Source: Lentisphaerota bacterium (GTDB taxonomy: Bacteria; Verrucomicrobiota; Kiritimatiellia; RFP12; UBA1067). From it: a DNA stretch of 64,000 nucleotides. Under the pieces are notes generated by a model. That model saw only the letters and a list, made by a program, of their open reading frames with translations, searched no databases and was not told the origin of the DNA. Below are positions 5,405 to 61,519 of the stretch, in pieces. The stretch's first letter is position 1. Each line of letters starts with the position of its first letter. The position numbers were made by a program, and so were the translations under genes. Location of the stretch: the NCBI GenBank assembly GCA_015061665.1, contig SUWC01000001.1, positions 35,737 through 99,736 on the forward strand, given 5' to 3'.

Positions 5405-5480
5405 GGCATGCTTGTCAACAGTGAAAATATAATATGATGTAAACAGTTATAGCAAAGTTATCAACAGAGTTTGTTAACAT
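5405..5480. promoter_or_regulatory. Divergent promoter region of mnmG and the downstream gene, with DnaA-box-like TTGTCAACA/TTATCAACA motifs
   Basis: TTGTCAACA at 5412-5420, TTATCAACA at 5458-5466 and TTTGTTAACA at 5470, in an AT-rich spacer. Confidence 0.35.
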
Positions 5481-5498
5481 GAAGACAACATTATTGAG

Positions 5499-40100: not shown

Positions 40101-43100
40101 GAGATCTACTCCATCCACCAGTACGGCTGGCAGATCGGCGAGGAGCGTCCCCCGCTCCAGCTCGACATGAACCCCGAGGGCGTGCCCTACTTGACTCAGT
40201 TCGCCAATTCCGAGCTTGGCCCGTGGGCAACCAAGTCGTGGGACGACTTCGAGGAAGTGCCCGGCACCTACTGGCTGCGCATCGTAGTTGAGGAGAGCGA
40301 CAACTACACAGGCGTTACGAGCGATCCTGTAAGCTTCAAGGTCTGGGAGTATAATGCGACGAAGTATCCGACCTACCTCGGCTACCACAAGGACATCGTG
40401 GTCGACGCGACTACGTTTGCGGGTGTTACCGAGACGCTCACGGACTTCCCGATGCTCGTCAAGGTCTCCGAAGATCTCATCCCCGACTTCTACAAATACG
40501 CCGATTCGTCCGACGGCTACGAAGGCATCCGCTTCACCGTGCCTGGGCCCGACGGCGCAGCGGTTGAGGTCCCGTTCGAAGTCAACGAGTGGAACGAAGG
40601 CGGCGAATCCTCGTTCTGGGTGAAGGTTCCGTCCTTCGCTCCTGGCGCATACGCCGTCACGATCAACTACGGCGACATCGGCGGGGAGCTGCCCGAGAAC
40701 GATCCCTCGCAGGTGTGGAGCGACTACATAGCGGTCTGGCACCTTGACTCGGGGCACTATACCGAGGATGCGACCGGTCACGGCTATACGCTTTCGGGCG
40801 GCACAATGACGGCGGGCGCGGACTCCGTCTTCGGCTCGTCGACATACGCCAGCAACGGCACGCTCGTCGCAAAGGAATGGGAAGGCGACTATCCCTCCAG
40901 CGGCAGCAACTTCACCTACACCGCCTGGTACAAGGCGCAGGGATACAGCGGCAACATGAACTTTGCGGGCAGGAAGCCCCTGACGGGCTCGTACGATCCC
41001 GGCGGCTGGATGCTGAGGCTTGAAGAAAGCGTTTCTACAACCATACGATTCTATACCTCGACGAACTCCGCAGGAGCCTACTACACGATCAAGGACATCC
41101 CTGCGCTCAAAGACAACTGGGACTTCATCGCCATTGCATCCTCGGGAGTCAGGTTTGACGTTACAGTGAACGACGCCGTGAAGGCGTCGGAAACAAATCC
41201 TCAATACCTGATCTACAGCGGAGACACGCCCGATCAGCTCAATGTCATGACAAAGTTTATGGCGGCGGATGAAGTGCGCGTGACGGAGAAGGTCCGCAGC
41301 CAGGCGTGGCTCCTTGCGGAGTACCTGCAGGGCAAGCTTTCGTCCGAGAACCCCGGCATCGTCGTGGGCGACGAAACGTTCGTCACCCCCGGCGCGACGT
41401 TCTCCAACAAGTGGCTTGAGTACCCGACGATCAACCCGATTCGCTGGTTTGCGGGGCAGACGACGTCCATCAGCCTCGGCAGCGCGCTGTACGGCGAGGT
41501 GGAGTATGTCTTCAACGGTGCGGACGGTTCGGCGCTTACGAACGCCATTCCGACTACGGCAGGGTCGTACGACGTCGTGTTCTTTGTCAGGGAGATCGAT
41601 TCGGGAACCTGCACATACGCAGGACTTGTCTACGCCTATCCCGAAGTCATCGACATCCTTGTGAAGAACGACGGCACTGGCGGCCTTGGCGGCACGACTG
41701 GCTCGGCCACGCTCTCCGGCCGCGTCCTTCTCGCCAACGACGACGACCTCGCAGGCTTCGAGATCTCCGGGCAGTGCTACTGGCAGACTAACGAAACCGC
41801 CGACACCTACTGGGTGCACGAAGCCGAGTCGTCGGTGTTCCTGCTGAACATGATGGGGCAGGGCACGATCAATACGTTGATGTCCAAGGAACCTGTAGAC
41901 GAGCTATGCGGCGCGACCCGCATCTGGCATCTGGACAATGTCCGTATCGGCAACACTGAGTATGATGATTTGCAACCGTCGGACCGTATGTGCTATCTGC
42001 CGTGGTCAAGCACATCCAAGGTGCTTTCTGAGAATGGTAGCTATATAACGACAAAAACTGCTGCGAATTGTGCTCATCTTGCGATGCGTAGCGTTTCGGG
42101 CGCTGCTGTGTATTCGCCCTGCTATACGAACGGCATCGGCACGATCTACTTTGACGCCGTCAACGCGTGGACGGTGGACAACAACTATCCGACCAACTAC
42201 ACGATTGTCATTGAGTATGCGACGAACTGCGTTGAAAGCGTTGGATATGACAAGCTGCCAACGGACGCCAATCTAACCACTCTTATAGAAGTACTTGACG
42301 AAGAGGAGAACGTTGTCGATTCCTACAACGGCGTTGACTACGAGCGCGCCAACTGGCAGCCGATCGACATGGTTCCTCTCTACTACGACGGAAAAGATTT
42401 CCAAACCAGCTACTCCAAGACTTTTGGCGACGTCGTCAACTCGTTCGACGGACCTGTTTCGTCTCTCTGTCTCGACGAGACAGTTGGCGGAGGACGCGAC
42501 AGGTTCTTCCGCATCCGTGTCCCCGTCCTTGACGAGCTTGACGGCTACCGCGGGCCGATCCGCTTCAGGATCAAGCGTACGACGACCAAGGGTGTCGGCC
42601 TTGACAGTAACAACTTCATCCTTCTCGACAACCTTATCGTCTCGTATCCTGCGATGACGGCGAACCTTGAGCCGAGGGGCAAGTTCGATCCGACGCGCTA
42701 CGGAAAGAAGGCGCTTGGCACGGAGTGTGCGTTCGACGTTCCGTTCCCCGCAGTCGGCGATTCCATCAAGGGCCTTGCGAAGGGGAGCTTCGAGACGAAC
42801 CCGCTCGTCGTGGATGCGGATACTTCGACGTTCGTGACGGGCGCGAAGCTCCACTACCGCTGGCGCTACCTCAACCAGGATTTCGGTGAATGGGCCGCGG
42901 TCGCCGTTGCGCCGAACACGTGGGAGGCTGCAACCCCGCTCAACCTTTCCGACTACTCCGACCGCCCGGGCGACGTCGAGTACTGGTACGAGCTTCTGCA
43001 GAACGCGCCGTACTACTCGTACACCGACTACTCGGGACTCGGCATTGGTCTTGGCGGACTCTACAGCGAGAACATCCCCGTCGTCACCAACCGCTGCGAC

Positions 43101-46100
43101 ATGGGCACGCTCGAGAGCTGCGGCACTGACTGGTTCGTGCGTCTGCGCGAGGGGAAGAGTCCCTACGAATCGCTTCAGATCGCGATCGACGACGGCAGCA
43201 AGACTAACATCGTCTACATGGAAGTCGTCAAGGACCACACGTGGCGCGGGTACTTGCAGACGTTCACCAACCAGGCCGGCACCGTCAGGATGCAGGTTCG
43301 CGGAGTCAACTGCCAGACGTTCGGCTCGGGCGAGTTCGTCGAAAGCGTCACCAACATGTACAGCGTCGCGGCGCTTACTAACATGCCGGTAAGCACGACC
43401 ATGGAGCTTGGCACGGAGGACGACTGGAACGACCTCGACATCGACGCGATGACGGGCTACCTCATGTTCCAGGTCGACGACTCCACGAGGTCGCTCACGA
43501 TCGTGCACGCTGACTACCAGTCGTTCAACGAGTGGAACGACGCGAAGGGCTCGAAGTTCGTCGGCAACTCGACCGACAACCTCACCAAGAGCGGAACGGC
43601 CGCGGGCAAGAAGAAGTATGTCGGCGACTGGAGCGCTTGGACGAGCATGGGCGCGGGGTCCGACGACTGGACGGTACCGTACGTCGGCTGGGCCGACCTA
43701 ACCCACATGCTGGGCCGTGAGCCGAACGTGGAGTTCCAGAGCGACACGTCGGGCAACTGGCAGGTCGGCCCCGGCATCTGGGTCTCGAAGTGGTACGACG
43801 ACTCGCGCAACAACATGGGCGTCGCGCTTCAGATGGCGGGCCAGGGACGCGGCTACGTGCAGATGACCGACTCCAACATCCTCCCGCGTGGCTTCGGGAC
43901 GCTCAGCTTCAACGCGCGCCTCGCGCAGACAATCGGATTCGAGGACTTCGTCTACTACGAGGGCGTGACGCCCAAGTCGCTTACGAACTACACCTTCGTG
44001 GCGCGCGGCGCGTTCGACACATCGAACAACACTGCGTTCCGCGGCAAGGCGTCGCTCTCGCTCGTCGCGCACTACCGTCCGAAGATCGGCTGCTACGAAT
44101 TCCGCGTCGAGCAGGTCCAGGCGAACAACAACACAAACCCCTCCGGCATCAACAACAGGAGCCAGCGCTTCAGCCTCTACCGCTGGAGGGTCGGGGACGA
44201 CGGGACGATTGAGCCGACGCTTCTCGGAAGCTACATGAACGACTCGTTCAACATTCCCAACACGTCCGGCTCCACCGGCACCTACATGCCGCTCTACATT
44301 TCCGTCTCGAACGACGTCAGCGGCGCGGTCTGCATTATGGCTGGCGTTTGCAGAGAAGGTGTTTCGGCCTCGAGCAACACGGGCACCGAGAGCGGGAAGA
44401 ACTTCTATTCGCTCTGCTACAAGGACACTTCGTCCTACAAGATCACGTCTGGAACGTACGGCTGCCTCTCGGCGAACTGCCCGGCTAAAATGATTCGTCC
44501 GTTCCACTACGACAAGCCGGTTCCATTCCTCAACGCGGGGCCTGCGGCAAACACGATCGACAGGTACTCCAACAACGCCATAACGTTCCCTGGAACAAAG
44601 CAAGACTGCTACGCCGAGCTTCTTACGACAGACCTTGAGGACCTGACGTGGGCCACGACCCCAGGCCGCTTCGTCAACTTCGCCGACAGCGGATCGGTCT
44701 ACGGCTTCACTGCGCCGACTACGGCCGTTACGCAGAAGCTGATCGTCTACACGGTTCCGGTTTCGGAAGTCTCGAGCGCCACGGCATCCAAGGACTGGAA
44801 GTGGACCGCGGTCACGAACATCGTCGTAAGCGGCTTCGGCTCGAACGGAAAGCTGACGGCGTACAACGTCCCGCTCTACGTTGCCGAGGACAGCTACATC
44901 AAGATCGCGGTCGACGGCAAGCCGACGGATACGAGGCGCGACGTCGTTATCGACTCGCTGACGGTTACGGCGTGGCGCGGAGCTAGCTGGAACGAGGACA
45001 TAGACGACCTCATCACGTACGCCCCCAACAACTTCGAGCCGTCCGAGATCAGGTGCAACTTCAACGAGTTCTCGTTCTTCGACGCGTGGGTGACGAACAT
45101 CACCGTTACCGGCAACACCAAGACGAACGCGCTTCTCCTTTCCGCGCGCAGGACGCCTGCGGGCGGGGTGTGCGGCATCAAGTCGCCGCTTATGAACGGC
45201 GAGCCGCTCGGCAGCGACAAGGGCAGCCGCGGCATTGGCCTGGGCATGGTCTCGTTCAGCTACCGCAACGCGCAGCCTAACGTCAACCTGCTCGTCCAGA
45301 TCGCGACGAACGGCGTCGGCTCGGCCAACATGGCGACGATCAACAACTTGAGCGAAGACAACTGGGTCACGTGGACGAACGTCAGCTTCAGCGCCGGCAG
45401 CGGGCGCCCGTCGTCCGGCGTCGCCAGCGTCTACCTCGGCCTCCACGGCGTCGAGGGCGCGCTTCGCGTCATCATGGACCCGGCTGTCGTCAACGCGGTG
45501 TCGAAGCAGCTCAACCCGAGCCTCTTCGGCGACATTTTCATCACCGGCATCAAGTGCACTGACGAGCCGGAGCTCGACGACTCGAGCTGGTGGGGCTGGA
45601 ACCTGCGCGGAGTCGGCATATCCTCCGCCAGCGGCTCAGACGAGGAGAACCGCATGTACCTTCCCGACATGACGCAGAGCGCGGACGAACTTGGCATGAG
45701 CATGGCGCTCAACAACTCCGTTAGCGTCGACACCTACGACGAAGACTCCGAGACGTACAAGGCGAACATGCCGTTCGTGCAGACTCCGGTCTTCGGCACG
45801 AACCTCGTCGGCGAGATCATGTTCCGCGCGAGGAAGTACGGGTACAGCGACGCGGCGACCGATGCGCAGGATGCGTACGTCACGCTTCTTGGCGCGAAGG
45901 AGGACGCGCCCGAGAAGTTCACAGAAATCACGAACTTCTGCGTCAACGCGAAGACGTTCAAGACGTACAGCTACAAGACGGAGCCAGGCGTCGACTACGC
46001 GGCGTTCAGGCTTGCGGTAAGCGGCGTTGACGGAGTCGACAGGGCGGGCATCTGGCCCGGTTCGGGCAGCCCGGTCCGCGTCATCCTCGACGAGGTCCTC

Positions 46101-48497: not shown

Positions 48498-48930
48498 AGG
48501 CAGACGCATAAGGCAGTCTGCCGGACTGCTTACGCTCGCCGCGGCGGTCGCCCTTGGACTGGGCGGCTGCTCCGGCGGCTGTTCGCGCGAGGAGAAGCCG
48601 GAGGTCCCCGGCGCGGTCGATCCTGCGAAGGCGAGTTCGTTCGCCGACCGGATGCACGACCCCGAGTACCTCAAGGCGCTCAAGGCGTCCGAAGAGGGCA
48701 TGCGCGCGATCATGAAGCGGACTGTAGAGCTTCAGAAGGCGCTCGAGGCGGCGAAGGCGGAGAACCCGGACTCTCCCGAGGTCAAGCGCCTTCAGGCCGA
48801 GCTCGACAAGTGCGCGGCGGAGCTCGAGGCCAACAGGCAGCAGGCCCAGCAGGTCGTGCGCGACCGTCTGCACAAGGCCCGCGCCGAGCAGGAGAAATTT
48901 GTTGAAGAACAACAGAGGAAGGGGAACTGA
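48484..48930 (+). CDS. Small lipoprotein with long coiled coil (possible periplasmic chaperone-like partner of the megaproteins)
   Basis: MSTSKGRRIRQSAGLLTLAAAVALGLGGCSGGCS gives a lipobox; the remainder is a heptad-like K/E/A/Q-rich helix. Overlaps the 3' end of the upstream giant ORF by 14 nt. Track ORF starts at 48451 in the same frame. Confidence 0.65.
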   Translation: MSTSKGRRIRQSAGLLTLAAAVALGLGGCSGGCSREEKPEVPGAVDPAKASSFADRMHDPEYLKALKASEEGMRAIMKRTVELQKALEAAKAENPDSPEVKRLQAELDKCAAELEANRQQAQQVVRDRLHKARAEQEKFVEEQQRKGN

Positions 48931-48933
48931 TTT

Positions 48934-51900
48934 ATGAAAGCGAAAATACTAAAGACACTGGCCCTCGCATTCGGCCTTGCGACAGCGTCGCTCGGCTTTG
49001 CAGGGGATATCTACGAAATACGTCCCTGCGACGAGTTCGGCGCCGCCAAGACATACGACCTGTCGCTGGCGAATCCTGCGGGTTCAGGCGAGAACCTCTA
49101 CTTCCTCATTCGCCTGAACAACAGGTACGACACCGCGACGTCGTCGTACGTCCCGTGGAAGCTGAACTACAAGGGCCTGTCGTCGGCATCGACCGCAGTG
49201 CGTCCGCAGATCGGCATCTACGTTTCGGGGCGTCCGTACTTCGCGACGATGGAGCAGGACCCGAAGGCGAAGAGCGACGCCTTCACGGACCTCATCTTCA
49301 AGTACACGACGCAGCCGGGCGACTTCGCGCTTCCGATCCGCCTTGCCACGTCGGCAGGTCCTGCTGACATCAAGCAGGGCGACGGCAACGAGTACGCGTG
49401 GTACGGCCTGACGACGGACAACTGGTCGTTGACGACCGGCGAGGGCGCGTCTGCGGAGGAGGTCACTCTTTCGTTCGGCAATCCCGCGCAGCCCGTGGCG
49501 GCTCCCGACGGGGCAAGGATCGCCGACTACACGCTTGAGCAGGCGCAGTTCTTCGTCCAGACGATTTTCTTCGACACCAAGTGGGAATCCGACGACGGCT
49601 CCGCCTGGCGCTATGTCCACCAGGATTCCAACATCACGTCGAACTACACTCCCAGCGTCGTCCTTCCCGCGGCCTCGACCGAGGCGCGCACGCTCTACGT
49701 GTGGTCGATGAACGACGAAGCCGTCTACGTCAAGGGCGGAACCGAGAAGAGCATGAAGCACCCCGACGGCGAGACGCGCCTGACGAAGGTCGGCACGCTC
49801 ACAATCCCCGGCGGCGCGACGTCCGTCAGCTTCGATTCCTGCGGACTTGACCTCTGGGGCGTGGCCGAGGGCGAATCGGCGCAGCTCGTCCTTTCCGCTT
49901 TCGACGAGTACTACACCTCCAGCGCCGACGGCACGATCGTCGAGGACTTCATCACAGTTCCGGTCAAGTGCGTCGAGCCCATGCCCGCGACGGTCGCCGT
50001 CACGGTCGATCCCGAGACGGCCAGGGCCAACAGCGCGAGCCACCTGAACCGCGCTGCGACTCTCACGGTCTACCTCACCCAGCCGCTTGAACAGGACATC
50101 GACGTCACGATCACGCCCGACATCGCGGGCCAGACGCTCGACATGACCAAGTATGTCAAGATGTCCACTTCCGCCACGAGTGTCAAGACCATCAACGCGC
50201 TCAGCGACACGGTCACGGTCACGCTTCCCAAGAACACCTCGGGCGCCGCGAACGGCGTTCCCGTTTACGTCTACACCCTCCGCGCCGACGAGTTCACGTC
50301 AGGCGGCTCCACGATTGACTTCATTCCGTCCGTCTCCGCCGAGGACATCGCGGCGACGGGCCTTTCGCCCGACGCTTTCCAGGTTGCCGCGCTCGAAGTC
50401 GTTGCGGATCCCACCGTCATCGTTGCGCCTTCGGCAGGCAGCGAGATAGGTGCAACGTCCGGCGTCGAGAAGGAAATCGAGATCGAGCTTGCCGACACGT
50501 ATGCGCACACGCAGCTCGTTCCGGGAACGGACAGCGGCTACACGATCCAGTTCAAGCAGAACGACGCCAGCACGTGGGTTGACCTTGCCGGTGAATACTA
50601 CATCGGGGCTGGCAACGTTCTGCGCGACGCAGACGGAAAGCTTCCCAAGATCAGGTATACGACTTCCTCTGTCGGCAGGACGACTGGCGACACGTTCAAC
50701 TCGTCCTTCCGCATCATCGAGCCGATCAACAACGGCAAGGTGGAGGTGTCCGTCCTTGCGACGGTCCAGGCTCCCAAGACGGTCATACTCGGAACCGACC
50801 GCAAGACGTACGACGAAGGCGATACGGGAGAGTTCTCGATCGCGCTCAACGAGCCGAACGACACGGGCGCCTCGCTGTGGGCCTATGTGGTTGCGGTCAA
50901 TGACGGCGCCAAGAAGGGCGACTTCAGGGCCGAGGGCTATGATTTCGTCATTACCTCCGACATGACGGACACTGAGAAGGCGGCTGCGACCGGCCTTGAG
51001 ATTCCCGCCGACACGACGGCTGTTTCTGGCGACGTCACGTTCCTCGACGGTGGATACAACGGGAGCAAGTTCTACTTCAAGGTAGTACTCTGCACGACTG
51101 CCAACTACGACGAGAGCGCCATCGTCTCCGGATACAACTGCGAGCAGACGAACGTGACGGTCAACAACGTTGAGCCGACAATTGCTCGCGTCGAGCTCAA
51201 CAACGAGCCGCCGGACGACACCGGCACGTATCCCAGCACGTATCCCGTCGGAATCGAGCAGACGCTCACCGTCAAGGTGAACGATCCTGGCCAGTACGAC
51301 CTCACGGCGACCGAGGAGGCTGACAAGTTCCGCGTCAAGTGGACGGTCAAGCGCACGGGCGGCGCGGCGTACATTCAGGAGCTGACGGGCAATCCCGACG
51401 ACATGGAGCTCAAGTACGCATTCCCGGCTGCGGGTACGTACACGATCACTGTCCAGGTCCAGGACAAGGACATGCGCGACTGGGCTGAGCTCAAGAGCGA
51501 GACATACGTCGTCATCATCGACCAGCCGCAGCTCACGGTCACGCTTCCCAACGAAGGCGTCTTCTTCGAGAACGAGAAGCGCGTCCAGATCAAGGTCGGC
51601 CTTGGCGGATACTTCGCCTCTACCGAGCCGATCGTCGTCATGGTGAAGGTGAACTCGCTCGCCGCGGCGGGCGCGCCCAACCCCGGCAAGTTCAAGCTCG
51701 ACTCCGCGCTTCTCACGGCCCCCGCTGGCTATGAGGCATACGCGGCGGCCGACACCTACTTCCTCACCTTCAACTCCGCCGATGCGCTTGACGTCTACGT
51801 CGAGGAGATGGACGGTACCGACGATTCGTCCGGCAAGGGCTTCCTGATCGTCGCGTCGGTCCTCAACGACAGCGTGTCCACCGATCCGACCAAGACCTGG

Positions 51901-54900
51901 GCCGAGTACTACAAGACGAACAACCGCGCGGTTGCGTACGTCGAGAACGCCGAGCCCGTCGTGACGGCTCCGGAGGAGAACGGAACGAACTACTGGACGA
52001 CGGCCAAGACGATTAGCTGGAGCATCAAGGGCACGGGCGACATTCCCGCGGACTTCGCGGGCATCGCGGCCTTCCCCGGCATCCGCGTCCAGTTGACGGG
52101 CGACCTGACGAACCCCGTCGACGAGTACATCACGGAGGGCAAGTCCTACTCCGTGACGCCCGACTTCGGAACGGGCACGGGCAGGCTTGACGTCTACCTC
52201 ACCGTAACCGACAAGGACGGCGGCGAGTTCACCCGCGTCTACAGCTACAACATGCCCGCCACGAAGACCCTGACTACGAATGCGACGGGTCCCGGCAGCG
52301 GCAACGGCAAGATACCGGTCTCCCAGACGTACGCAGCGGCGGACGGCCTCGGCGCGGGCCATGTCTATGTCCTCGGCACGGGCGTCGAGCCTCTTGCCGC
52401 CAACAGCTGGACGGTTGACTGGAACTGCAAGAACCTCAACACGGTCAACATCTACGCGTACGGCTACAAGGTCGGCGCGATCGAGGACGGAACGCTCGAC
52501 GCGGGTCGCGACATCGCGATGAATCCGTGGGGCGGACTCTGGACGACGGGCGACTGGTACACGTACGTCGACGGACAGAACCGCGACAGCTTCCCCTATG
52601 CCTGGATTCTCGCGGGCGGCAGCTCCGGCGGCGAGGAGGCGTCCTACGTGGCGTACGTCGCGCCCAAGTACGGCGCCGACGTCGCGCAGATTTCGCCGTT
52701 CAGCCTCCCGACGCAGACTCTCGAGGACGGCAGCGGCTATCCCGTGAGCTACGTCGAGGCCGTCTTCGCGAGGGAATGGCGCGCGGGCGACAACATGGGC
52801 GACATCAACGGCGACGGAGTGCCTGACTACTTCGCGCTCGCCAAGGCGTACAAGGGCGGCTACCTCGCCACTGCGGACGGCCTTGGGTCCGAACTCCCCG
52901 GCATCAACAACCTCAACGACGACGCCGACTTCTACCCGATCGCGCGTCTGATCGGAGCGGACAAGCTCGTTCCGAATCCGACGAGCCAGTGGAGCCGCGT
53001 CGACATCGGCCAGCCGTTCACGACGAGGCTTGAGATCCGCGGCTTCCACGACGGACTCAACTACGGCATGTTCAAGGTCGATGCGCGCGAGGCGTCCGAC
53101 GGCTGGGTCTCCGACCTCGATCTGAGCGTTCCCGAAAAGCTCGCGCTCGTCAGGCACGCGGAGGCGACCGGAGGCGAACTCGCCGAGGCGCTCCTCGGGA
53201 CGTACAACGCGGACGACGTCGAGAACTGGCTCACGACGGACGACCAGCAGGAGGCGGCCAAGAGGTACATCGACTCCACCTGGGCCAACTACAAGGCGGG
53301 CGATGCCACGACCTGGGGCTTCACGGTCGAGAACCGCACCGATCCCACGGTCGCGGATACCGACGGCGACGGCATGGCCGACGGCTACGAGTACTACTTC
53401 TGGTATGCGGCCACGGTCGGCTTCGACGCGGCGAAGGGTCCGGTCAAGGGCATGCGCTTCACGCTTAACCCCGCGACGTTCGAGACGGGCGTCGAGATTC
53501 CGAGCGAGGAGATCGCCCTCATCTTCAACCCGAACGTCGTCATCGACTGGACCAAGCAGGATACCGACAACGACGGACTCTACGACTGGGAGGAAATGCT
53601 CATCGGCACGAGCCCGATCTTCTGGGATACTGACGGCGACGGCACGAGCGACTTCTACGAGACATACTTCAACATCAACCCGATCGCGGCCGACAACGAC
53701 AGCGTCAACGGAAACATGAACCTCGACGGAGACTTCATGGCCAAGGCGAAGGTCGGAACGAAGAGGGATACCGGTGCTACGATCCCGATCATCGACACAG
53801 GCTATTTCTGGCTCTACACCGCGACCGACGGCACTATGTGGGCGTTCGAGGACCTTCTCGCGCTCGACACGACGGAGGAGTCCGCTCAGGTGACGGCCGT
53901 TGCGTTCCAGGTTGCGCCCTTCAACGGCGGATACATTCCGACGACGGAGAACACGAGGCCGAATAACCTGTTCCGCACGCGGACTGTTGAGGTCAACACG
54001 ACCGTCCAGCCTGTTGGCTCGACAGTCGACCTCTACCACCACCAGGTCTACCGCTTCTGGGGATTCGACCCGCGCACGGGCTGGTACAGGAACAACCAGG
54101 GTCTCGTGAACGGACGCTGGATCAAGAGCGGAACCGCCGGCACTGCGGTCAACACAGTCGACTACACCGCCCGCGACGAATTCAGGCTTCTTGAATACCG
54201 CTACATCGTCGGTCTCAGAAGCTACCAGGCCGATGAGGCGGACATTGCGGCCGACAAGAACACGATCGCCGGAATCGTCGCCTCGGCTACGACGAATCCG
54301 AACACGCCCTTCGACGGCAGGGTCTGGGGCGACTACTCCGACAAGCCCTACGGCCAGGCGCAGCACGGCGCCGATACTGACGGCGACGGCGTGCCGGACG
54401 GCTGGGAACTCTACGTCGGCGTGAACCCGAACATCAAGTGGACGATTCCCGCAGGCCCTGGCTGCGACGTCCTCTACCGCACGTCGACCACGTACAACGA
54501 CGGAACGCCCCGTCCTTACCTGGCGACCACGGATGCCGACAGGGACACGTACGACAGCGACAAGCTCTCCACTCTCGTCGCCGAGTACGCGGGCACCGAC
54601 TCCTGCGGCTGCTACGAGGCCTGCGATACGATCTACGCCAACCACCCGAGCAAGGCGGACGGCTGCATGTACCGCTGGTACAACAAGTTCTTCCCGACGG
54701 ATCCACGTGACCCCGACACCGACGGCGACACGGTTATCGACGGCGAGGAAGGCGCGAAGTGGACGACTGGCTTTGTGTTCAACAGGTGGGGCCAGAACGG
54801 CACCAAGAGGACCAACCACTTCACCGTCTACGGCCTGCCGCACGACAACGGCGGCATCTGCATCCCCGGCGGCGGCATGAGCCCGACGACGATCGATACC

Positions 54901-57900
54901 GACGAGGACGGACTCCCCGACGGATGGGAAATGCAGTACGCCGGCATTCTCATGAACGGCGAGTCGGTAGCCGAAGGCGTGTTCCCGGCCGGAGCGCCCG
55001 ACGAGGACATATACGACGACATCAGGGCTGCGCTTGCTGCCTACAGCGGCAAGATGGCCGCGATCGACGAAGTCGCGACTGAAGACACAGAGTCCGAAGA
55101 AGAGGACTCCGAAGAGCAGGGCGAAGGCGACACCCTCGATACCGAGGAGGACGACACCGGCAACGCCAAAAACTACTACGTGATCATGGGCATGGACCCG
55201 ACGGTCGCAGACGCCGGAACGAAGCTCATCGTCGGTGCGCGCGATCTCGACTGGGATGGCGACGGACTCCAGAACTGGCAGGAGTACATGGTTCAGGCCA
55301 TGCGTCACTTCCGCTACGACGACTGCCGCACCCCGCTCATGGGCTGCGACATCCCCGGCTACGACGAAGCGCAGGGCAAGATTGTCCGCGGTGAGTGGCT
55401 TGGCGAGGACGGCTACCTCAAGATGAGCTTTGTCGAGCCCTACGAGGAGGCCCAGCTCGATACGATCGGCGATACGCTTGGCTACAAGAACTTCGCCGCG
55501 TACGCCAAGGCGAATCCCGACATGCTGCGCGCACTCGGCTACTTCGCCGATCCTCCGCGCGACTGGGACAAGGCGAAGGTCAAGCTCGGCTACAAGTACC
55601 TCCTGCCGCCGACATGCTACTACGACATGCCCAGGGAGACGTACGAGGACTTCGAGACGTGGGAGGACGAGTTCGGCTACGAGCATGAGCTCTTCGACCT
55701 GGTCGGCGCCGATGGCGTCGTCGTCACGAACGACTTTGTGTCGTACAGCGAGGAGACTGGCTATAGCTACACGTCCGTCTACTCGGAATACCAGGACGGC
55801 AAGTTCTACTACTACGTCCAGTGCGAGCATCCGGCTCATCCCGAGTACGGCGCCGAGGAGTGGTGGGAGGTCGTCCCGAGGACCGTCGAGGTCGGGCTTG
55901 GCATCGCCACGCAGACCTGCAGCACCCCCTACTACGTCTCGACCGACCCGAGGTTGTGGGATACCGACAACGACGGCATGGACGACTACTGGGAGCTCTA
56001 CCACGGCCTCAACCCGCTGCTCGGACACTACGGACAGCTTGCAGACGAGGATACGGGACTGCTTGGCGGAACCGTCAGCGACATCATCTACGACGCGTAC
56101 CTCTATGGATCGTGGACCTTCACGACCACGTCTGTCGGCTACGACGGAACGATTGATCCGCCCATCAAGCACGTCAGCGCATGGCAGAACGCGTGGGTTG
56201 GCTGGAACAACGTCGAGACGCCGCTCTTCGACCCGATCAAGTTCCCGTGGATGATGGGTACCTACGACTGCGACGCCGACGGCGACGGATTCAGGAACAC
56301 CGAGGAGACGATCCTCGCGAACATCACGACGCCTGGCACGAAGCACACCGACCCGACGCCGCTGTGGATGACCGACACCACTGCCGGAACGAACCTGGTC
56401 GAGTCCCTGACCCATGTCCAGATGGTCCTCACCAACAAGTTCGGGCGCATCGTGCGCGACGGCGCGACCGGACTGCCGGTGATGACCGACGGCGTTGTCA
56501 CGAACGAACCAATCGTGCTTACGAAGAGCCCGTCGTACACCGCGCTCTACTACGTCAACGAGCAGCCGGTGCCGGATAGCCGCAAGTGGCCTTCCTTCAT
56601 GACGCAGTACGTCACCGCGTTCGAGGAGAACGAAGGCTACGACACCGACTCCGACTTCAAGAGCGACGGACGCGAGACGGTCAAGGCCACGGAGCCCATG
56701 ACCGACCCGATCGACTTCTCCGACCCGGCTCGCCGCCAGTCGATGTACTTCGGCGGTCGCGACAACCCGGGCATTGCGATAAACTTCCGCTCGGTCGTCC
56801 GCAACTCGTTCGGACAGGACCTGTTCAAGCAGTTCACGGTCGAGGCTTGGGTGCGTCCCGCCGAGATCACCGACGAAGACCAGTGCGTCGTCAGCCGCGC
56901 GATTAACTACGCCGGCTGGGACCTCGTCAACTCCAACGCCGTCATCCGCAGCAACTTCGCGATCGGCGTCGACGCCGAGGGCCATGCCTACGCCGAGTTC
57001 GAGGATTCGACCAAGAGGTCCGTCAGGATCACGGGCGGCGACCTCGCGGTCGACGAGTGGACGCATGTCGCAGCGACGTTCGACGGAGCGGAGTTCGCCC
57101 TCTACGTCAACGGCAAGAGAGTCGACATCCAGGCCACGGGGCTCATCCCCGCCAACGGCGTCATGACGACGACGCAGGATCCGCAGTACGGCTCGTACCT
57201 CGGCTTCCCGTACTCGACCTACTACGTCGGGCCTGCCGCGACGATCATCGGCGCGAAGGCTACTGGCAAGGCCGCGTTCAACGCGGGGCTTGCCGCAGAG
57301 GCGACCGACTGGGGCGAGATCGCCAGCAGCTTCTTCAAGGGAAGCGTTGACGAAGTCCGCGTCTGGGACGGCGCCCGCAGCCAGAGCCAGATCAACTCCG
57401 CCTGGAAGGTCCGCCTGTCCACGGAGCAGGTCAAGAGCATGCGCGAGACCGTCTTCAACCAGTTCAAGAACGGGGCGCGCAGAAACGACGGCACGTATAG
57501 GGACATCCTTGATCCCGAGCTGATCCAGCACTATACGTTCAGCACTCTCCCCGGCGCGACCGAAGAGGCAAACGTCCAGAGGATCGTCCCCGGCTTCCAG
57601 GCGAACGTCCTCGCGACCGTCCAGTCGCCTACCGACGGCTCGGTTCTGGAGAACCAGGTGATGGTCGGCTGGTGGCGCGACATCCTCTCCAACGAGGAGC
57701 TCAGCGACGACGCGGTCTACAACAATCCGTGGACGGTGCCGTGGATCCAGAATACGGTCAACCACCTGCCGCGCCTTGCCGGTACGTTCAGCGACAGCAT
57801 GTACTGGAGCGAGCAGTACGCCGGCTACACGCCCGCGTCCTTCCAGAACGTTGACAAGTTCGAGATCGCGAACGCGATGAACCCGTACACGCTCGAGCAG

Positions 57901-60900
57901 GACGACTACACCGACTCCTTCCTCCTGATGAAGCTGCGCCGCCTTGCGGTCTCCGGCGGAGCCGCCAACATGCTCTCCCGCTTCAGGTACGACCTGACTC
58001 ACGAGTTCACCGGAACCGACGACCTCGTGCCGGTTGGCTATGCGTTCGCGAAGCGCCTTGAGGAGACGTGGGACGGCCAGGGTCCTGAAGACGCCTGGAT
58101 GGTGACGTCCGATGGCGCGGTCGGCCTTGACGCCGATCCCGAAGACACGGGCATCCCGGTCTGGGCGCGCGACGCCTATCCCGACGCGGCCTCCTACTGG
58201 TACGCGGTCGCCAAGGGCCTCCTGCCCGACGGCGTGCTGCATCCCGAGTTCAAGAACCTCGTCGACGACGATGCGGACGGAATGCCCGACTGGTGGTCCA
58301 ACTTCTACTCGGTGCAGGGCGCGGCGTCCGACGACGACGACCTTGACGGCCTGAGCAACTACACCGAATACCTCCTCTCCGACGTGTTCGACCTCGGCGT
58401 CAGGTTCGACCCGAGGAAGTCGCACTCCGTCAGCAAGTACGAAAGCGACTACTTCTTCAAGATCGGCCAGCTCTACGCGGGCGAGATCTTCACCGACCAC
58501 GACATGATGGAGGACTTCTGGGAGAAGATACTCGGCACGGCCTACGTCAGCCGCTACCTCTGGGATGCCAAGACCGGCATTTCCGACAACGACGAGGACG
58601 GCTGGACGGCGTTCAGCGAGTGCCGCTACAACGAGTTCGTCTCGGGCATCCAGTCCAAGTTCATCAGCCACCAGGTCAATGCTGGCGAGGTGACGGACTA
58701 CCCGATTCCGACTGTCTCGGCCACGATCCGCTACAACGGAACGCAGCGCCTCTCCGAGGCCGACGCCACCAGCGCGACGGCGACGAACACAGTCGTTCCT
58801 CTCGTGGTCAAGGCGTACCGCCGCGGCACCACGACGCAGGCGAAGGGCGCGCTCAGCGACGCGCAGTGGACGATCTATCCCGGCCAGGCGGTCGAACGCG
58901 TCCAGAACCTCGGCATCTGGAGCGACAGGGTTGTCCATGGAACCCTCACGCCCGGCAACATCGACCCGAACTCCGTCGAACTCGAGTTCTCGTCCTTCCT
59001 CGGCAACGACCTCTACGTCTGGGAGATCTACGAGGAAGACGGCGTGACGCTGCGCGGCATGACGAACGGCACATACGAGGAATACCTCGAGTGGGTCGAC
59101 GCGTACGGCGTCTACGGCACGACGTACTACTCCGCCAGCGGGTTCAGGCCCGGGCGCATCAAGCTCCAGGTCGGAACCTCCGACTGGGCGAGCTTCACGG
59201 ATGACTTCGACATCACCGTCACGTCGGACGAGACGACCGAGAACGGCTACATCTGCTTCCAGGGAACCCGCGTCGGAACGATCAACCTCGTCACCGGCGA
59301 GTATGCGCTCGACCTCAAGAACTTCGAGCACTCCTCCCTCGGCGGCAGCACGAACGGAACGACGACGATCGTCAACTCGCTCGTCCGCATCAGCTACAGC
59401 GCGCAGGTGCCGACTCTCCAGTCGCAGAAGCTCAACCTCTACCTCGGGCGTCCCGACACGGGCGCTCTGCGCGAGGGCAGCAACGACTTCGTCGCGTTCT
59501 ACGACCTCGACTCCGACGGCGAGCTCACGCCCGGCGAGCCCTTCGGCTACATCCGCAACGTCGCCGTCAGCTGGTACAAGCCGTCCTTCGAGCTCGAGCT
59601 CACGGACTACAGCCCGGTCACGACGCGCATGAACCTCTGGGAGGGCCTGGCCGACAGGAAGCTTGCGCCGGTCGACGCCGTGTCCACGGACGACCCGCGG
59701 TTCAACGTCAGCACGAACCTCGAGCACGTCCTTGAGGCCGCCGTCGAGAACGACGAGAAGTACCTCCGCTACCGCGTCGCGCGCTGGACGGTCGACGGCT
59801 ATCCGCGCAACCTCGCCGGATTCCCGGCGCGCGAGGTCGCCTCCGGCTACGTCAACATGCTTGACGCGACGTGCCTCACCGAGCGCGAGATACTCGCCAA
59901 CGGCGACCTTGACCTCGACTGGGACTACTTCGCCGAGATCAGCGGCGCAGACGCGGTCGATCTGCTCGGCATCGACGTCACGAACGTCACGTATCTCGTC
60001 GTGATCGGCGAGGAGGGCACGTCGAGCTTCGAGAGGAACAGCAGCACGAACGACATCAGCGCGTTCAGCTACGTGATCTCCCGCCGCTTCGATGCGACGA
60101 GGGCGAAGGCGGTCCCGACGAACAACGCCCTGACGATGGTCGGCGCGCGTCCGAAGTTCAGCTGGAAGATCTCCGGCGAGAGCGACTGGGCGAAGGCGTT
60201 CGGCTCCAGCTACACGGCGTTCTCGCTGCGCGTGCTCGATTCCGCGAACAACGTCGTCTACAGCTCCGGCAACATGCGCATGCCCGCCTGCGACCGCAAC
60301 GGCGTCTACACATTCGAGCCGCCGATCTACGCGGACAGCGAGCTCAAGCCTGACGAGAGCTACACCTGGCAGGTCTCGATCAAGAACTCCAAGTTCAAGA
60401 GCGACTCCTGGTCGGAGAAGGCGAACCTCTACGTCAACACGCTCCAGAACAGCGACGAGTACGGCTCGATCGGCGTCTGCGCGAAGTACTTCGGACCCGA
60501 CAGCGTCCTCTCCGGCGGCAACATCGTCGTCGAGGCGTTCACGACGCCTGACTTCACGGGCGACCCCGCGGGACGCCACGTCATCAGGGCGAACTCCGGC
60601 AAGGCAAAGGCCGCCGCGTTCGACGTCGAGCACGAGGTCAACGCGACGATCATCGGCCTGCCGAAGGGCAAGTACTATGTCCGCGCGTACATCGACTCGA
60701 AGAAGTACGGCACGCAGTCCACGCGCCAGAGCTGGGAGTCCTGGGGCTACGCCTGCCCGCGCGAAAACGCGGTCAACGAGTGGATCTACTCGCCCACGGT
60801 CGTCGAGATCGGCAGCAAGCGCGATGCGGGTGACCTCGTCGACGTCTACATCGAGGACGTCGACACGAACCAGAACGGCCTGCCCGACGCGTGGGAGATG

Positions 60901-61494
60901 ATCAACAACGACGGCTCGCTCGACACGTCGGTCGAGACGATCGACGGAACGATCAGCGGCGTCGTCATCAACGACGCGCTCAACGGAGAGCTCACCACCG
61001 CCCAGGGCGACGGATCCGAGGCTGCGGGCCTTGCGGCCCACGCGCTCAACGCGATCAAGAACGCGGGCATCGCGGTCCTGGCGCTCGACGTCGATCCGTC
61101 CGGCAAGTCCAGCTACTCGGCGGCGCTCGTCGGCGTCGAGAGCGACACCGAGGCTGAAAGCTCCGGCAAGATCACGTCCATCGCGTTCGTCGACGGCAAG
61201 CTCGTCATCACGGCCGACGTCGACAGCACGGTGACGACGACGACTGGCGGCAGCTCCGGTCCTGAAAGCACGATCTGGACGACTTCCGGCTCGTCGGGCT
61301 CCGTCACGGTCAACGCCAAGGTCCTCTACAAGAACAACCTCTCCGAGGCCGATTGGAAGGACACGGGCGTGTACGTGACGCTGACCGTCTCCGAGGACGG
61401 AACGCAGTCCACCGGCGACATGGACCTCTCCGAGTTCCTCGAGTCGAAGGGCAACCCGGCGCAGATGTTCTTCTCGATCGCCGTTGAGAAGTAA
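48934..61494 (+). CDS. Giant secreted/cell-surface protein (4186 aa) with multiple thrombospondin-type-3-like Ca-binding repeats and a LamG domain
   Basis: Signal peptide MKAKILKTLALAFGLATASLGFA with SD AGGAAGGGG. At least 12 D-x-D-x-DG-x-x-D-x-(W/Y)-E motifs (for example DTDGDGMADGYEYYFW, DTDGDGVPDGWELY, DTDNDGMDDYWELY). LamG region (W-THVAATFDGAEFALYVNGKRV...GSVDEVRVWDGARSQSQI). Confidence 0.85.
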   Translation: MKAKILKTLALAFGLATASLGFAGDIYEIRPCDEFGAAKTYDLSLANPAGSGENLYFLIRLNNRYDTATSSYVPWKLNYKGLSSASTAVRPQIGIYVSGRPYFATMEQDPKAKSDAFTDLIFKYTTQPGDFALPIRLATSAGPADIKQGDGNEYAWYGLTTDNWSLTTGEGASAEEVTLSFGNPAQPVAAPDGARIADYTLEQAQFFVQTIFFDTKWESDDGSAWRYVHQDSNITSNYTPSVVLPAASTEARTLYVWSMNDEAVYVKGGTEKSMKHPDGETRLTKVGTLTIPGGATSVSFDSCGLDLWGVAEGESAQLVLSAFDEYYTSSADGTIVEDFITVPVKCVEPMPATVAVTVDPETARANSASHLNRAATLTVYLTQPLEQDIDVTITPDIAGQTLDMTKYVKMSTSATSVKTINALSDTVTVTLPKNTSGAANGVPVYVYTLRADEFTSGGSTIDFIPSVSAEDIAATGLSPDAFQVAALEVVADPTVIVAPSAGSEIGATSGVEKEIEIELADTYAHTQLVPGTDSGYTIQFKQNDASTWVDLAGEYYIGAGNVLRDADGKLPKIRYTTSSVGRTTGDTFNSSFRIIEPINNGKVEVSVLATVQAPKTVILGTDRKTYDEGDTGEFSIALNEPNDTGASLWAYVVAVNDGAKKGDFRAEGYDFVITSDMTDTEKAAATGLEIPADTTAVSGDVTFLDGGYNGSKFYFKVVLCTTANYDESAIVSGYNCEQTNVTVNNVEPTIARVELNNEPPDDTGTYPSTYPVGIEQTLTVKVNDPGQYDLTATEEADKFRVKWTVKRTGGAAYIQELTGNPDDMELKYAFPAAGTYTITVQVQDKDMRDWAELKSETYVVIIDQPQLTVTLPNEGVFFENEKRVQIKVGLGGYFASTEPIVVMVKVNSLAAAGAPNPGKFKLDSALLTAPAGYEAYAAADTYFLTFNSADALDVYVEEMDGTDDSSGKGFLIVASVLNDSVSTDPTKTWAEYYKTNNRAVAYVENAEPVVTAPEENGTNYWTTAKTISWSIKGTGDIPADFAGIAAFPGIRVQLTGDLTNPVDEYITEGKSYSVTPDFGTGTGRLDVYLTVTDKDGGEFTRVYSYNMPATKTLTTNATGPGSGNGKIPVSQTYAAADGLGAGHVYVLGTGVEPLAANSWTVDWNCKNLNTVNIYAYGYKVGAIEDGTLDAGRDIAMNPWGGLWTTGDWYTYVDGQNRDSFPYAWILAGGSSGGEEASYVAYVAPKYGADVAQISPFSLPTQTLEDGSGYPVSYVEAVFAREWRAGDNMGDINGDGVPDYFALAKAYKGGYLATADGLGSELPGINNLNDDADFYPIARLIGADKLVPNPTSQWSRVDIGQPFTTRLEIRGFHDGLNYGMFKVDAREASDGWVSDLDLSVPEKLALVRHAEATGGELAEALLGTYNADDVENWLTTDDQQEAAKRYIDSTWANYKAGDATTWGFTVENRTDPTVADTDGDGMADGYEYYFWYAATVGFDAAKGPVKGMRFTLNPATFETGVEIPSEEIALIFNPNVVIDWTKQDTDNDGLYDWEEMLIGTSPIFWDTDGDGTSDFYETYFNINPIAADNDSVNGNMNLDGDFMAKAKVGTKRDTGATIPIIDTGYFWLYTATDGTMWAFEDLLALDTTEESAQVTAVAFQVAPFNGGYIPTTENTRPNNLFRTRTVEVNTTVQPVGSTVDLYHHQVYRFWGFDPRTGWYRNNQGLVNGRWIKSGTAGTAVNTVDYTARDEFRLLEYRYIVGLRSYQADEADIAADKNTIAGIVASATTNPNTPFDGRVWGDYSDKPYGQAQHGADTDGDGVPDGWELYVGVNPNIKWTIPAGPGCDVLYRTSTTYNDGTPRPYLATTDADRDTYDSDKLSTLVAEYAGTDSCGCYEACDTIYANHPSKADGCMYRWYNKFFPTDPRDPDTDGDTVIDGEEGAKWTTGFVFNRWGQNGTKRTNHFTVYGLPHDNGGICIPGGGMSPTTIDTDEDGLPDGWEMQYAGILMNGESVAEGVFPAGAPDEDIYDDIRAALAAYSGKMAAIDEVATEDTESEEEDSEEQGEGDTLDTEEDDTGNAKNYYVIMGMDPTVADAGTKLIVGARDLDWDGDGLQNWQEYMVQAMRHFRYDDCRTPLMGCDIPGYDEAQGKIVRGEWLGEDGYLKMSFVEPYEEAQLDTIGDTLGYKNFAAYAKANPDMLRALGYFADPPRDWDKAKVKLGYKYLLPPTCYYDMPRETYEDFETWEDEFGYEHELFDLVGADGVVVTNDFVSYSEETGYSYTSVYSEYQDGKFYYYVQCEHPAHPEYGAEEWWEVVPRTVEVGLGIATQTCSTPYYVSTDPRLWDTDNDGMDDYWELYHGLNPLLGHYGQLADEDTGLLGGTVSDIIYDAYLYGSWTFTTTSVGYDGTIDPPIKHVSAWQNAWVGWNNVETPLFDPIKFPWMMGTYDCDADGDGFRNTEETILANITTPGTKHTDPTPLWMTDTTAGTNLVESLTHVQMVLTNKFGRIVRDGATGLPVMTDGVVTNEPIVLTKSPSYTALYYVNEQPVPDSRKWPSFMTQYVTAFEENEGYDTDSDFKSDGRETVKATEPMTDPIDFSDPARRQSMYFGGRDNPGIAINFRSVVRNSFGQDLFKQFTVEAWVRPAEITDEDQCVVSRAINYAGWDLVNSNAVIRSNFAIGVDAEGHAYAEFEDSTKRSVRITGGDLAVDEWTHVAATFDGAEFALYVNGKRVDIQATGLIPANGVMTTTQDPQYGSYLGFPYSTYYVGPAATIIGAKATGKAAFNAGLAAEATDWGEIASSFFKGSVDEVRVWDGARSQSQINSAWKVRLSTEQVKSMRETVFNQFKNGARRNDGTYRDILDPELIQHYTFSTLPGATEEANVQRIVPGFQANVLATVQSPTDGSVLENQVMVGWWRDILSNEELSDDAVYNNPWTVPWIQNTVNHLPRLAGTFSDSMYWSEQYAGYTPASFQNVDKFEIANAMNPYTLEQDDYTDSFLLMKLRRLAVSGGAANMLSRFRYDLTHEFTGTDDLVPVGYAFAKRLEETWDGQGPEDAWMVTSDGAVGLDADPEDTGIPVWARDAYPDAASYWYAVAKGLLPDGVLHPEFKNLVDDDADGMPDWWSNFYSVQGAASDDDDLDGLSNYTEYLLSDVFDLGVRFDPRKSHSVSKYESDYFFKIGQLYAGEIFTDHDMMEDFWEKILGTAYVSRYLWDAKTGISDNDEDGWTAFSECRYNEFVSGIQSKFISHQVNAGEVTDYPIPTVSATIRYNGTQRLSEADATSATATNTVVPLVVKAYRRGTTTQAKGALSDAQWTIYPGQAVERVQNLGIWSDRVVHGTLTPGNIDPNSVELEFSSFLGNDLYVWEIYEEDGVTLRGMTNGTYEEYLEWVDAYGVYGTTYYSASGFRPGRIKLQVGTSDWASFTDDFDITVTSDETTENGYICFQGTRVGTINLVTGEYALDLKNFEHSSLGGSTNGTTTIVNSLVRISYSAQVPTLQSQKLNLYLGRPDTGALREGSNDFVAFYDLDSDGELTPGEPFGYIRNVAVSWYKPSFELELTDYSPVTTRMNLWEGLADRKLAPVDAVSTDDPRFNVSTNLEHVLEAAVENDEKYLRYRVARWTVDGYPRNLAGFPAREVASGYVNMLDATCLTEREILANGDLDLDWDYFAEISGADAVDLLGIDVTNVTYLVVIGEEGTSSFERNSSTNDISAFSYVISRRFDATRAKAVPTNNALTMVGARPKFSWKISGESDWAKAFGSSYTAFSLRVLDSANNVVYSSGNMRMPACDRNGVYTFEPPIYADSELKPDESYTWQVSIKNSKFKSDSWSEKANLYVNTLQNSDEYGSIGVCAKYFGPDSVLSGGNIVVEAFTTPDFTGDPAGRHVIRANSGKAKAAAFDVEHEVNATIIGLPKGKYYVRAYIDSKKYGTQSTRQSWESWGYACPRENAVNEWIYSPTVVEIGSKRDAGDLVDVYIEDVDTNQNGLPDAWEMINNDGSLDTSVETIDGTISGVVINDALNGELTTAQGDGSEAAGLAAHALNAIKNAGIAVLALDVDPSGKSSYSAALVGVESDTEAESSGKITSIAFVDGKLVITADVDSTVTTTTGGSSGPESTIWTTSGSSGSVTVNAKVLYKNNLSEADWKDTGVYVTLTVSEDGTQSTGDMDLSEFLESKGNPAQMFFSIAVEK

Positions 61495-61519
61495 GTATCA
61501 AGCAAGAAAGAAAGCTCAA

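Follow-up and report, generated by a model that had tools for sequence, protein, structure and literature searches.

What does a gut bacterium make with a single gene of 12.6 kb, and by which route would so large a product leave the cell? The question is raised by giant B, a 4186-aa protein encoded on the + strand (48934..61494) of the DNA analyzed here, a 64,000-nucleotide stretch (hereafter the window) of contig SUWC01000001.1 in assembly GCA_015061665.1, covering positions 35,737 to 99,736 of the forward strand. The host, an uncultured gut bacterium, belongs to the PVC (Planctomycetes–Verrucomicrobia–Chlamydiae) superphylum, and is placed in the Kiritimatiellia by most record names and listed as 'Lentisphaerae bacterium' in NCBI. 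Its gene for giant B, an intact, nonrepetitive open reading frame (ORF) with an ATG start, is deposited as MBE6381448.1 under the public name 'MAG: LamG domain-containing protein [Lentisphaerae bacterium]' (MAG, metagenome-assembled genome), which is nearly uninformative. From the features described below, we lean toward the view that giant B is a Ca2+-stiffened, nonrepetitive, adhesin-like protein located at the cell surface or in the extracellular matrix.

An Intact Gene for a Predicted Exported Protein

The N-terminus of giant B reads MKAKILKTLALAFGLATASLGFAG|D, a Sec-type signal peptide (residues 1 to 24; 48934..49005, + strand) cut before the aspartate. It was recognized by direct reading of the sequence, ranks first in hydrophobicity among the 19-mers of the protein, and is conserved among homologues, and because of this conservation giant B is counted as a predicted Sec-exported protein. 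Neither a lipobox nor a prepilin motif is present at the N-terminus, and no NCBIfam prepilin model matched. The mature form has a mass of ∼455 kDa and an isoelectric point (pI) of 4.3. Internal repeats were rejected after both protein- and DNA-level tests came back blank, with 0 self-matches by BLASTP (E ≤ 1e-3) and no tandem repeats in the DNA.

The same protein, identical throughout, is encoded on a 136-kb Joint Genome Institute (JGI) contig, on a contig of a different JGI sample, and on a third contig, which comes from the Logan assembly of a public sequencing run. Because full-length collinear homologues are 28 to 45% identical and intact ORFs occur at most of the 80 family loci described below, we regard giant B, on comparative sequence grounds, as a genuine gene under purifying selection. 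Its GC content at third codon positions (GC3) is 0.88, close to the 0.93 and 0.89 of the downstream genes ackA and pta, and this similarity of codon usage hints at substantial expression.

Conserved TSP3-Type Motifs and a LamG Domain

An earlier note on this DNA, made from the letters alone, had described an exported megaprotein rich in thrombospondin type 3 (TSP3)-like Ca-binding motifs, a description borne out by the Sec signal and by matches to the Pfam family TSP3_bac (PF18884) above its cutoff. The strict pattern D-x-D-x-D-G-x-x-D-x-x-E occurs six times in giant B, with an aromatic residue before the glutamate in five of the six, where 500 shuffles of the sequence gave a mean of 0.002. 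A relaxed pattern, D-x-[DN]-x-[DN]-x3-[DN]-x2-[EDQA], occurs 13 times between residues 1290 and 3977 (mean over the shuffles 0.03), and the loosest, D-x-[DN]-x-[DN]-G, 17 times (0.56). The note's count of at least twelve motifs is right for the relaxed form and too high for the strict one. All four acidic positions are identical in 12/12 homologues for 11 of the 13 relaxed motifs, in proteins whose overall identity is merely 28 to 40%. TSP3_bac scores 34.8 bits in giant B against a cutoff of 25, over four stretches, and exceeds the cutoff in all 12 family members that were scanned (best E-value 3.8e-17), so that giant B falls within the Pfam definition of TSP3_bac repeat proteins.

Eleven motif copies, all part of a central block recognized by motif scan, Pfam, and alignment, are packed into residues 1290 to 2581 (52801..56676, + strand; ∼3.9 kb of DNA), where they lie between conserved modules without a known family; a PDB profile search with this block gave no match. 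A second TSP3-type cluster, found by motif scan and alignment in segment 3068 to 3229 (58135..58620, + strand), has D-rich loops whose first residues are 3111, 3134, and 3218 and stands ahead of a conserved DHDFMED...DGWSNWAE junction. We read the acidic loops as putative Ca-binding sites because TSP3_bac matches in 12/12 members and the acidic positions are invariant amid a background of ∼30% identity. The TSP3-rich regions have AlphaFold predicted local distance difference test (pLDDT) values below 40, and we therefore claim nothing about their fold.

A LamG domain lies C-terminal to the central block. Laminin_G_3 matches residues 2631 to 2734 at 62.6 bits (cutoff 27.6; E-value 6e-17), and a LamG/pentraxin-type jelly-roll extends over residues ∼2600 to 2870 (56731..57543, + strand) by Pfam, AlphaFold2 (AF2) model 1, Foldseek, and PDB profile evidence. 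Model 1 (residues 2334 to 3300, mean pLDDT 50) has its highest, though patchy, confidence at ∼2600 to 2870. Foldseek of the LamG model retrieved the LamG-like domain of PAPP-A, pentraxins, and neurexin LNS domains with E-values down to 8e-12, and a PDB profile search with the LamG region retrieved Pappalysin-2 at 4.9e-9. Sequence profile and predicted structure agree that the LamG fold is genuine, and the LamG/concanavalin domain that the earlier note had placed at about residues 2600 to 2800 is found where it was proposed. PDB sequence and profile searches with giant B matched LamG alone.

On the N-terminal side of the Ca-loop block, a conserved head is followed by a beta-sandwich/PKD-type array (residues ∼25 to 1120; 49006..52293, + strand), with approximate boundaries drawn from Pfam and the alignment. 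The PKD match in giant B itself is weak (residues 796 to 854, E-value 0.017); across the 12 members, Pfam detected PKD in eight (best E-value 2.8e-18), PKD_4 in five, Ig_Rha78A_N in six, and DUF2141 in two, and the DKD(G) motifs of this array are invariant across the alignment. Toward the C-terminus, AF2 model 2, Foldseek, and weak Pfam matches delineate a stalk of immunoglobulin (Ig)-like beta-sandwiches at residues 3240 to 4000 (58651..60933, + strand), which holds a DUF2141/Ig_Rha78A_N-like domain (residues 3727 to 3834) and the last TSP3-like loop (3977 to 3988). Pfam gave weak matches of giant B to Ig_Rha78A_N/DUF928. Model 2 (residues 3240 to 4186, mean pLDDT 59) has beta structure throughout and consists of several sandwich domains, a disordered linker, and a final sandwich of ∼110 residues; over residues 3710 to 4000 its pLDDT is mostly 70 to 86. 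Foldseek of this C-terminal model found only generic Ig arrays (among them complement MG, SiiE BIg, and rhamnosidase N-terminal Ig domains). Outside LamG and the stalk the models are poor because the alignments that fed AlphaFold contained only 10 to 12 sequences. Invariant columns of the 12-member alignment are mostly the acidic positions of the Ca loops together with Gly, Trp, and Pro. The order of domains is signal peptide, head with PKD/beta-sandwich array, Ca-loop center, LamG, three Ca loops, Ig stalk, and a C-terminal domain (CTD).

A Rapidly Diverging Family of Gut Kiritimatiellia

A database search with residues 2501 to 3500 returned 14 true relatives, unnamed or called 'LamG domain-containing', from Kiritimatiellae MAGs. 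When a single genome of each species was scanned with an alignment of the same region, 84 loci were confirmed, 80 of which were kept for family analysis. With few exceptions the hosts are Kiritimatiellia MAGs recovered from the rumen or from the guts of yaks, sheep, goats, horses, Hadza people, chickens, and termites; other labels stand on some family records, a few of which are obviously misbinned. The closest relative of giant B is 45% identical. At most of the 80 loci the giant is a single intact ORF of 3.4k to 6.6k residues, and 12 members aligned at full length are collinear from signal peptide to stop, with 28 to 40% identity. Literature searches found no paper on the family. It is an uncharacterized set of giant Ca-binding-type, lectin-carrying surface proteins that occurs in at least 80 gut species; the family is new, its kind is familiar, and it does not amount to a new mechanism.

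Median identity at the same loci is 27 to 34% for four segments of giant B, 79% for ackA, and 86% for pta. Giant B evolves much faster than its neighbor genes, which fits an exposed surface protein, as such proteins usually evolve in this way.

At three loci (L004, L005, and L006) two ORFs take the place of the giant, with the break at a different position in each and, in one of them, within LamG. A two-gene version of the family was rejected, since the break points differ and most genomes have one ORF; the splits are probably frameshifts or assembly errors in metagenome contigs. A distant subgroup (L053–L066, L072–L075, and L081–L084) has a giant of ∼3500 aa and keeps the lipoprotein gene found upstream of giant B. 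There the giant is followed, in the place of ackA, by an ORF of 1470 to 1670 aa, which ends in RFF[KR]LxV in L065 and L074.

A Family-Specific C-Terminal Domain

Alignment and profile search define a CTD at residues ∼4076 to 4186 (61159..61491, + strand). Giant B terminates in MFFSIAVEK, the family consensus being GFF[KR]VxVxx, and nearly all complete members share the terminal pattern '...v.v.vlYk.SL....W..v...GFF[KR]VxVxx', with the aromatic strand 0 to 5 residues from the stop. When 1.84 billion representatives were searched exhaustively with a CTD profile, 114 clusters matched, almost all of them at the extreme C-terminus, and the shorter matches were mostly contig-truncated pieces of the giant B family. 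In a word-indexed search, an alignment of 44 CTD sequences had 0 matches at E ≤ 1e-3, a local hidden Markov model search of all ORFs at the family loci returned only the sequences used to build the model, and NCBIfam sorting-signal models gave 0 matches for the whole of giant B (E ≤ 0.01) and 0 for six family CTDs (E ≤ 10). By these searches the GFF[KR]VxV-ending C-terminal beta-sandwich of ∼100 residues appears to be a new element specific to the giant B family.

The same CTD is carried by some other proteins of these genomes. In the window it ends a 578-aa secreted protein without a Pfam family (33248..34984, + strand; NCBI MBE6381444.1), whose C-terminus is GEFYKVYVDIKAE and whose 586-aa homologue (P0119) was recovered by the exhaustive CTD search. 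At nine loci the upstream giant likewise ends in it, and so do, in the distant subgroup, the ORFs of ∼1500 aa located 3′ of the giant. One 1895-aa protein (P0146) combines a subtilase (S8) head, TSP3 repeats, and two LamG domains with the ∼900-residue C-terminal stalk of giant B and its CTD, and a partial 1532-aa protein (P0021) has Peptidase_C1, LamG, and TSP3. Because these two proteins carry protease heads, their domain make-up suggests that heads are swapped on a common stalk.

An Upstream Lipoprotein and a Second Giant

Directly upstream of giant B lies a gene for a 148-aa protein (48484..48930, + strand) in which we read, by motif, a lipobox (LGLGGC), the sequence RMHDPEYLK, and a charged coiled coil, confirming the upstream lipoprotein named in the earlier note. 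The gene stops 3 nt ahead of giant B and overlaps the end of the preceding gene by 14 nt. A Pfam search with it found no family, only subthreshold coiled-coil noise. Among the 66 loci with enough upstream sequence, most have a positional equivalent at a gap of −3 to ∼+60 nt, the distant subgroup included, and these equivalents have a lipobox or an N-terminal transmembrane helix, an R-M-x-D-x-x-Y-type motif, and a coiled coil. A small predicted coiled-coil lipoprotein directly upstream of the giant is thus a new conserved feature of the family.

The preceding gene encodes giant A (37104..48497, + strand), a protein of 3797 aa with an N-terminal Gly_rich_2 match (residues 76 to 330), and from its start to the end of giant B the interval 37104 to 61494 measures 24.4 kb, the cassette length given in the note. 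That both giants are Ca-binding and lectin-containing, as the note also held, does not stand: giant A has 0 TSP3 motifs, Pfam at E ≤ 1 reports Gly_rich_2 only and no LamG, and giants A and B have no similarity. The note had further proposed comparing genomes for presence of the cassette; the lipoprotein recurs at most of the 66 loci, but giant A is a cassette partner in part of the family, with its C-terminal 1000 aa preceding B in no fewer than 24 loci. Nine related loci have a different giant in the giant A position, ending in an RFYKVxV C-terminal motif. The giant A gene contains a (GGC)n tract at 38330 to 38390. Just 5′ of the cassette is a 457-aa ORF (35424 to 36797, + strand) without a Pfam match, in which a PELPLVAQN-type repeat occurs three to four times and the sequence 'MPDHCHFIIRV' resembles the HUH motif of IS200-type transposases.

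Genomic Context and a Downstream Secretin Cluster

Giant B is followed by ackA (61520 to 62659, + strand) and pta (62730 to 63767, + strand), identified by Pfam and annotation. The ackA start lies 25 nt past the giant B stop, and the spacing is equally tight in relatives (for example, 8 nt in L005). No + strand terminator was found between the two genes (61494 to 61520), so that either ackA and pta are cotranscribed with the 12.6-kb giant gene or their promoter lies within its 3′ end. Past the giant the contig continues with ackA, pta, an SIS/CBS (KpsF-like) gene, and genes for Amuc_1102-like, PilM/FtsA-like, and Amuc_1100-like proteins, a 377-aa membrane protein bearing TSP3 repeats, and a 1122-aa secretin. 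This Amuc_1098-1102-type cluster starts 3.3 kb downstream of the giant B stop, on the same strand. Counted over 83 related loci and bounded by the extent of the flanks, ackA is present in 43/83, PilM in 30/83, and Amuc_1100 in 24/83.

The window also contains a T2SS-F/PilC-type platform gene (26270 to 27457, + strand; domain match; T2SS, type II secretion system), followed by a DUF6930 gene (27462 to 28406) and far from the PilM/secretin cluster. The earlier note's remark that no transport genes are adjacent applies inside the edge of the window, because it is the window that ends there and not the genome; it fails for the secretin cluster 3.3 kb past the stop and for the T2SS-F/PilC gene. Glycoside hydrolase (GH) genes of the plant-glycan families GH28 and GH127 are encoded in the window, and their presence suggests a plant-glycan niche. 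Elsewhere, an AAA-ATPase_like + PDDEXK_9 nuclease gene (29753 to 31351, + strand) coincides with a local GC dip (0.56), and the dnaA (1233 to 2681, − strand) and mnmG/gidA (3041 to 5281, − strand) genes lie in positions 1 to 6000, where GC is 42 to 47% against ∼62% elsewhere in the window. The low-GC part could reflect origin-proximal odd composition or a chimeric assembly join near 6 kb.

A Proposed Calcium-Stiffened Surface Protein and Its Alternatives

In the mechanism we propose, giant B would be exported by Sec, after which Ca2+ bound to the acidic loops would rigidify the chain into an extended fiber. LamG, and probably also the N-terminal head, would attach to plant particles, mucus, or other cells by way of a glycan or a proteinaceous ligand. 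The stalk, CTD, and upstream lipoprotein, the last probably cotranslated with giant B, would keep giant B at the outer membrane or help it through, and the conduit in that membrane would most plausibly be the secretin of the Amuc_1098-1102-type cluster. Judged from gene order, this neighboring secretin makes an attractive but weak candidate for the export route, because three housekeeping genes intervene, the clade sharing the order is shallow, and the distant subgroup is without the cluster. It is by analogy conceivable, and in our estimation unlikely, that the CTD and the coiled-coil lipoprotein, with the cluster secretin as conduit, form a PVC-specific system that sorts and anchors giant Sec cargo.

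Several observations weigh against a Ca2+-stiffened surface adhesin exported in this way. The three intervening genes, ackA, pta, and kpsF, separate giant B from the secretin cluster, and the link to that cluster is missing in the distant subgroup, so that the order may be inherited synteny only. Giant B does not have a prepilin-type N-terminus. The models are poor beyond LamG and the stalk (mean pLDDT 50 and 59), and for ∼90% of the protein, Pfam and PDB searches by sequence and by profile gave neither a recognizable family nor a solved relative, which leaves room for a hidden catalytic or other role. Finally, the CTD profile recovered almost nothing outside the giant B family, which leaves a general sorting role for the CTD as conjecture.

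That the ORF is a compositional or assembly artifact, or that the true gene is the antisense 3580-aa ORF at 50299 to 61041 (− strand), is so improbable as to be negligible. The high-GC window does keep very long ORFs open on both strands, but domain matches, signal peptide, and protein-level conservation all sit on the + strand, and the identical protein recurs on contigs of independent samples. The antisense frame is exactly in phase with the codons of giant B and stays open because giant B, at a GC3 of 0.88, has only three TTA/CTA/TCA codons in 4187; low-GC3 homologues have more than 100 such codons, the frame is not conserved in them, and it was rejected as a gene, being a shadow of giant B codon bias. 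A more serious alternative, which overlaps the surface adhesin we favor and to which we give a distinctly lower but appreciable probability, makes giant B a dedicated component or cargo of the Amuc_1098-1102-type pilus machine, such as a tip or sheath adhesin or a T2SS-type substrate. The order from B to the secretin is kept in up to 43/83 species-level loci despite an identity of ∼30% in B, all the genes are on one strand with 25 nt and no terminator between B and ackA, TSP3 repeats recur in the 377-aa membrane protein of the cluster, and a T2SS-F gene lies within the window. Three housekeeping genes nonetheless stand between B and the cluster, and ackA and pta are 79 to 86% identical, which makes the clade fairly shallow, so that inherited synteny suffices for the gene order. 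The distant subgroup moreover has the giant and lipoprotein with neither ackA nor pilus genes nearby, giant B has no prepilin motif, and the cluster proteins have no CTD motif.

Giant B might instead be a structural part of the envelope (an S-layer-like lattice, a scaffold of the glycocalyx, or a spacer in the periplasm) and not bind ligands as an adhesin. Coat proteins, too, are typically large and acidic (the pI of giant B is 4.3), with Ca sites and arrays of beta-sandwiches. Giant B is present as a single copy at a fixed locus by core metabolic genes with matching codon usage, and inside the LamG region a PDB profile search matched 4qvs, an 'S-layer domain-containing protein'. That match, however, covers the LamG fold only, Pfam found no SLH or lattice-forming domain in the 12 members, and lengths ranging from 3.4k to 6.6k aa together with fast turnover suit an interaction surface better than a lattice; we consider a coat improbable. 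Slightly less probable still is a surface-tethered enzyme, polysaccharide-active or proteolytic, hidden in the unannotated modules, with LamG serving as a carbohydrate-binding module. Relatives with protease heads point in this direction, namely the subtilase of P0146 on the same C-terminal stalk and the Peptidase_C1 of P0021 with LamG and TSP3, as do invariant His, Asp, Cys, and Arg clusters at residues 1700 to 2130 and the plant-glycan hydrolases encoded nearby. Against it, no catalytic family was detected in the 12 members (E ≤ 0.05) or in PDB profile searches, and Asp, Gly, Trp, and Pro, residues that structural Ca loops typically contain, make up most of the invariant positions.

Kiritimatiellia are common in the guts of herbivores and humans, and almost none are in culture. 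In the pilus-like cluster next to giant B, the protein whose Akkermansia homologue is Amuc_1100 has a counterpart of biomedical interest. The giant B family, conserved, probably well expressed, 0.4 to 0.7 MDa in size, and provided with a fixed position, a cognate lipoprotein, and a private CTD, is a defined candidate for the adhesion apparatus of the Kiritimatiellia. Because giant B fits no known giant-adhesin route to the diderm surface, it is also a test case for the export of very large proteins in PVC bacteria.

Comparison with Known Systems

The earlier note had held that recognized C-terminal sorting signals and domain hits in a well-studied adhesin family would speak against its reading; NCBIfam, Pfam, and motif scans found neither. 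The only NCBIfam models touching giant B are CglD (NF033765), at 21.6 bits against a cutoff of 400, and MtsD (NF047639), at 17 against 800. The DxDxDG block of CglD, a surface adhesin whose function is Ca2+-dependent, has been interpreted as a COMP-like Ca2+-binding domain (bioRxiv 10.1101/2023.10.19.562135). Giant B shares with these Myxococcus xanthus proteins tandemly spaced D-x-D-x-D-G loops of the TSP3_bac type, but the likeness is confined to ∼110 to 130 residues of repeats and scores far under the family cutoffs. Giant B is also ∼4 times larger and is without the VWA/MIDAS (metal ion-dependent adhesion site) and EGF-like domains and a lipobox of its own; Pfam found no VWA match in giant B or in the 12 members.

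The LamG modules of PAPP-A, pentraxins, and neurexin have the jelly-roll fold and the Laminin_G_3 signature in common with giant B, and in those proteins their role is Ca-dependent ligand binding. Identity to them is 10 to 18%, and LamG is one domain among more than 15 in giant B.

In size class, acidity, Ca2+-rigidified beta-sandwiches, and ligand modules embedded in a stalk, giant B is similar to SiiE, LapA, and MpIBP, and SiiE BIg domains are among the fold matches of its stalk. In place of the C-terminal signal of these type I secretion system (T1SS)/repeats-in-toxin (RTX) adhesins, giant B has a Sec signal at its N-terminus. A scan of giant B for the RTX pattern GG.G.D gave 0 matches, tandem near-identical Ig repeats as in LapA, SiiE, or MpIBP are not found in it, and ATP-binding cassette (ABC), membrane fusion protein (MFP), and TolC genes are absent among the annotated genes of the window and 10 kb of contig downstream.

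Cargo of the type IX secretion system (T9SS), such as SprB, resembles giant B in being giant and Sec-dependent, with a terminal beta-sandwich of ∼100 residues and a small adjacent partner gene; here the partner is a coiled-coil lipoprotein and not a PorP/SprF-type beta-barrel. The pathway of CTD, lipoprotein, and secretin considered above would follow a logic like that of the T9SS CTD with PorP/SprF, using unrelated parts. There was no match of giant B to Por_Secre_tail or a type B CTD, and neither the window nor the examined contig stretch showed a T9SS gene. LPxTG is absent from giant B and PEP from its last 60 residues, and the C-terminus is not among the top hydrophobic 19-mers. For type V secretion, Pfam detected neither a translocator barrel nor a two-partner secretion (TPS) family in the 12 members, nor a TpsB-type neighbor. 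As the motif and model tests were all blank, assignments of giant B to the RTX, LPXTG, PEP-CTERM, T9SS, and autotransporter classes were rejected.

Akkermansia muciniphila provides the comparison for the genes beyond pta, since homologues of Amuc_1102, Amuc_1101 (PilM/FtsA-like), Amuc_1100, and the secretin of its Amuc_1098-1102 region follow giant B; these genes are neighbors of the giant and not its relatives. Belonging to none of the adhesin families compared here, giant B is, by analogy, a protein designed like the giant Ca-binding adhesins.

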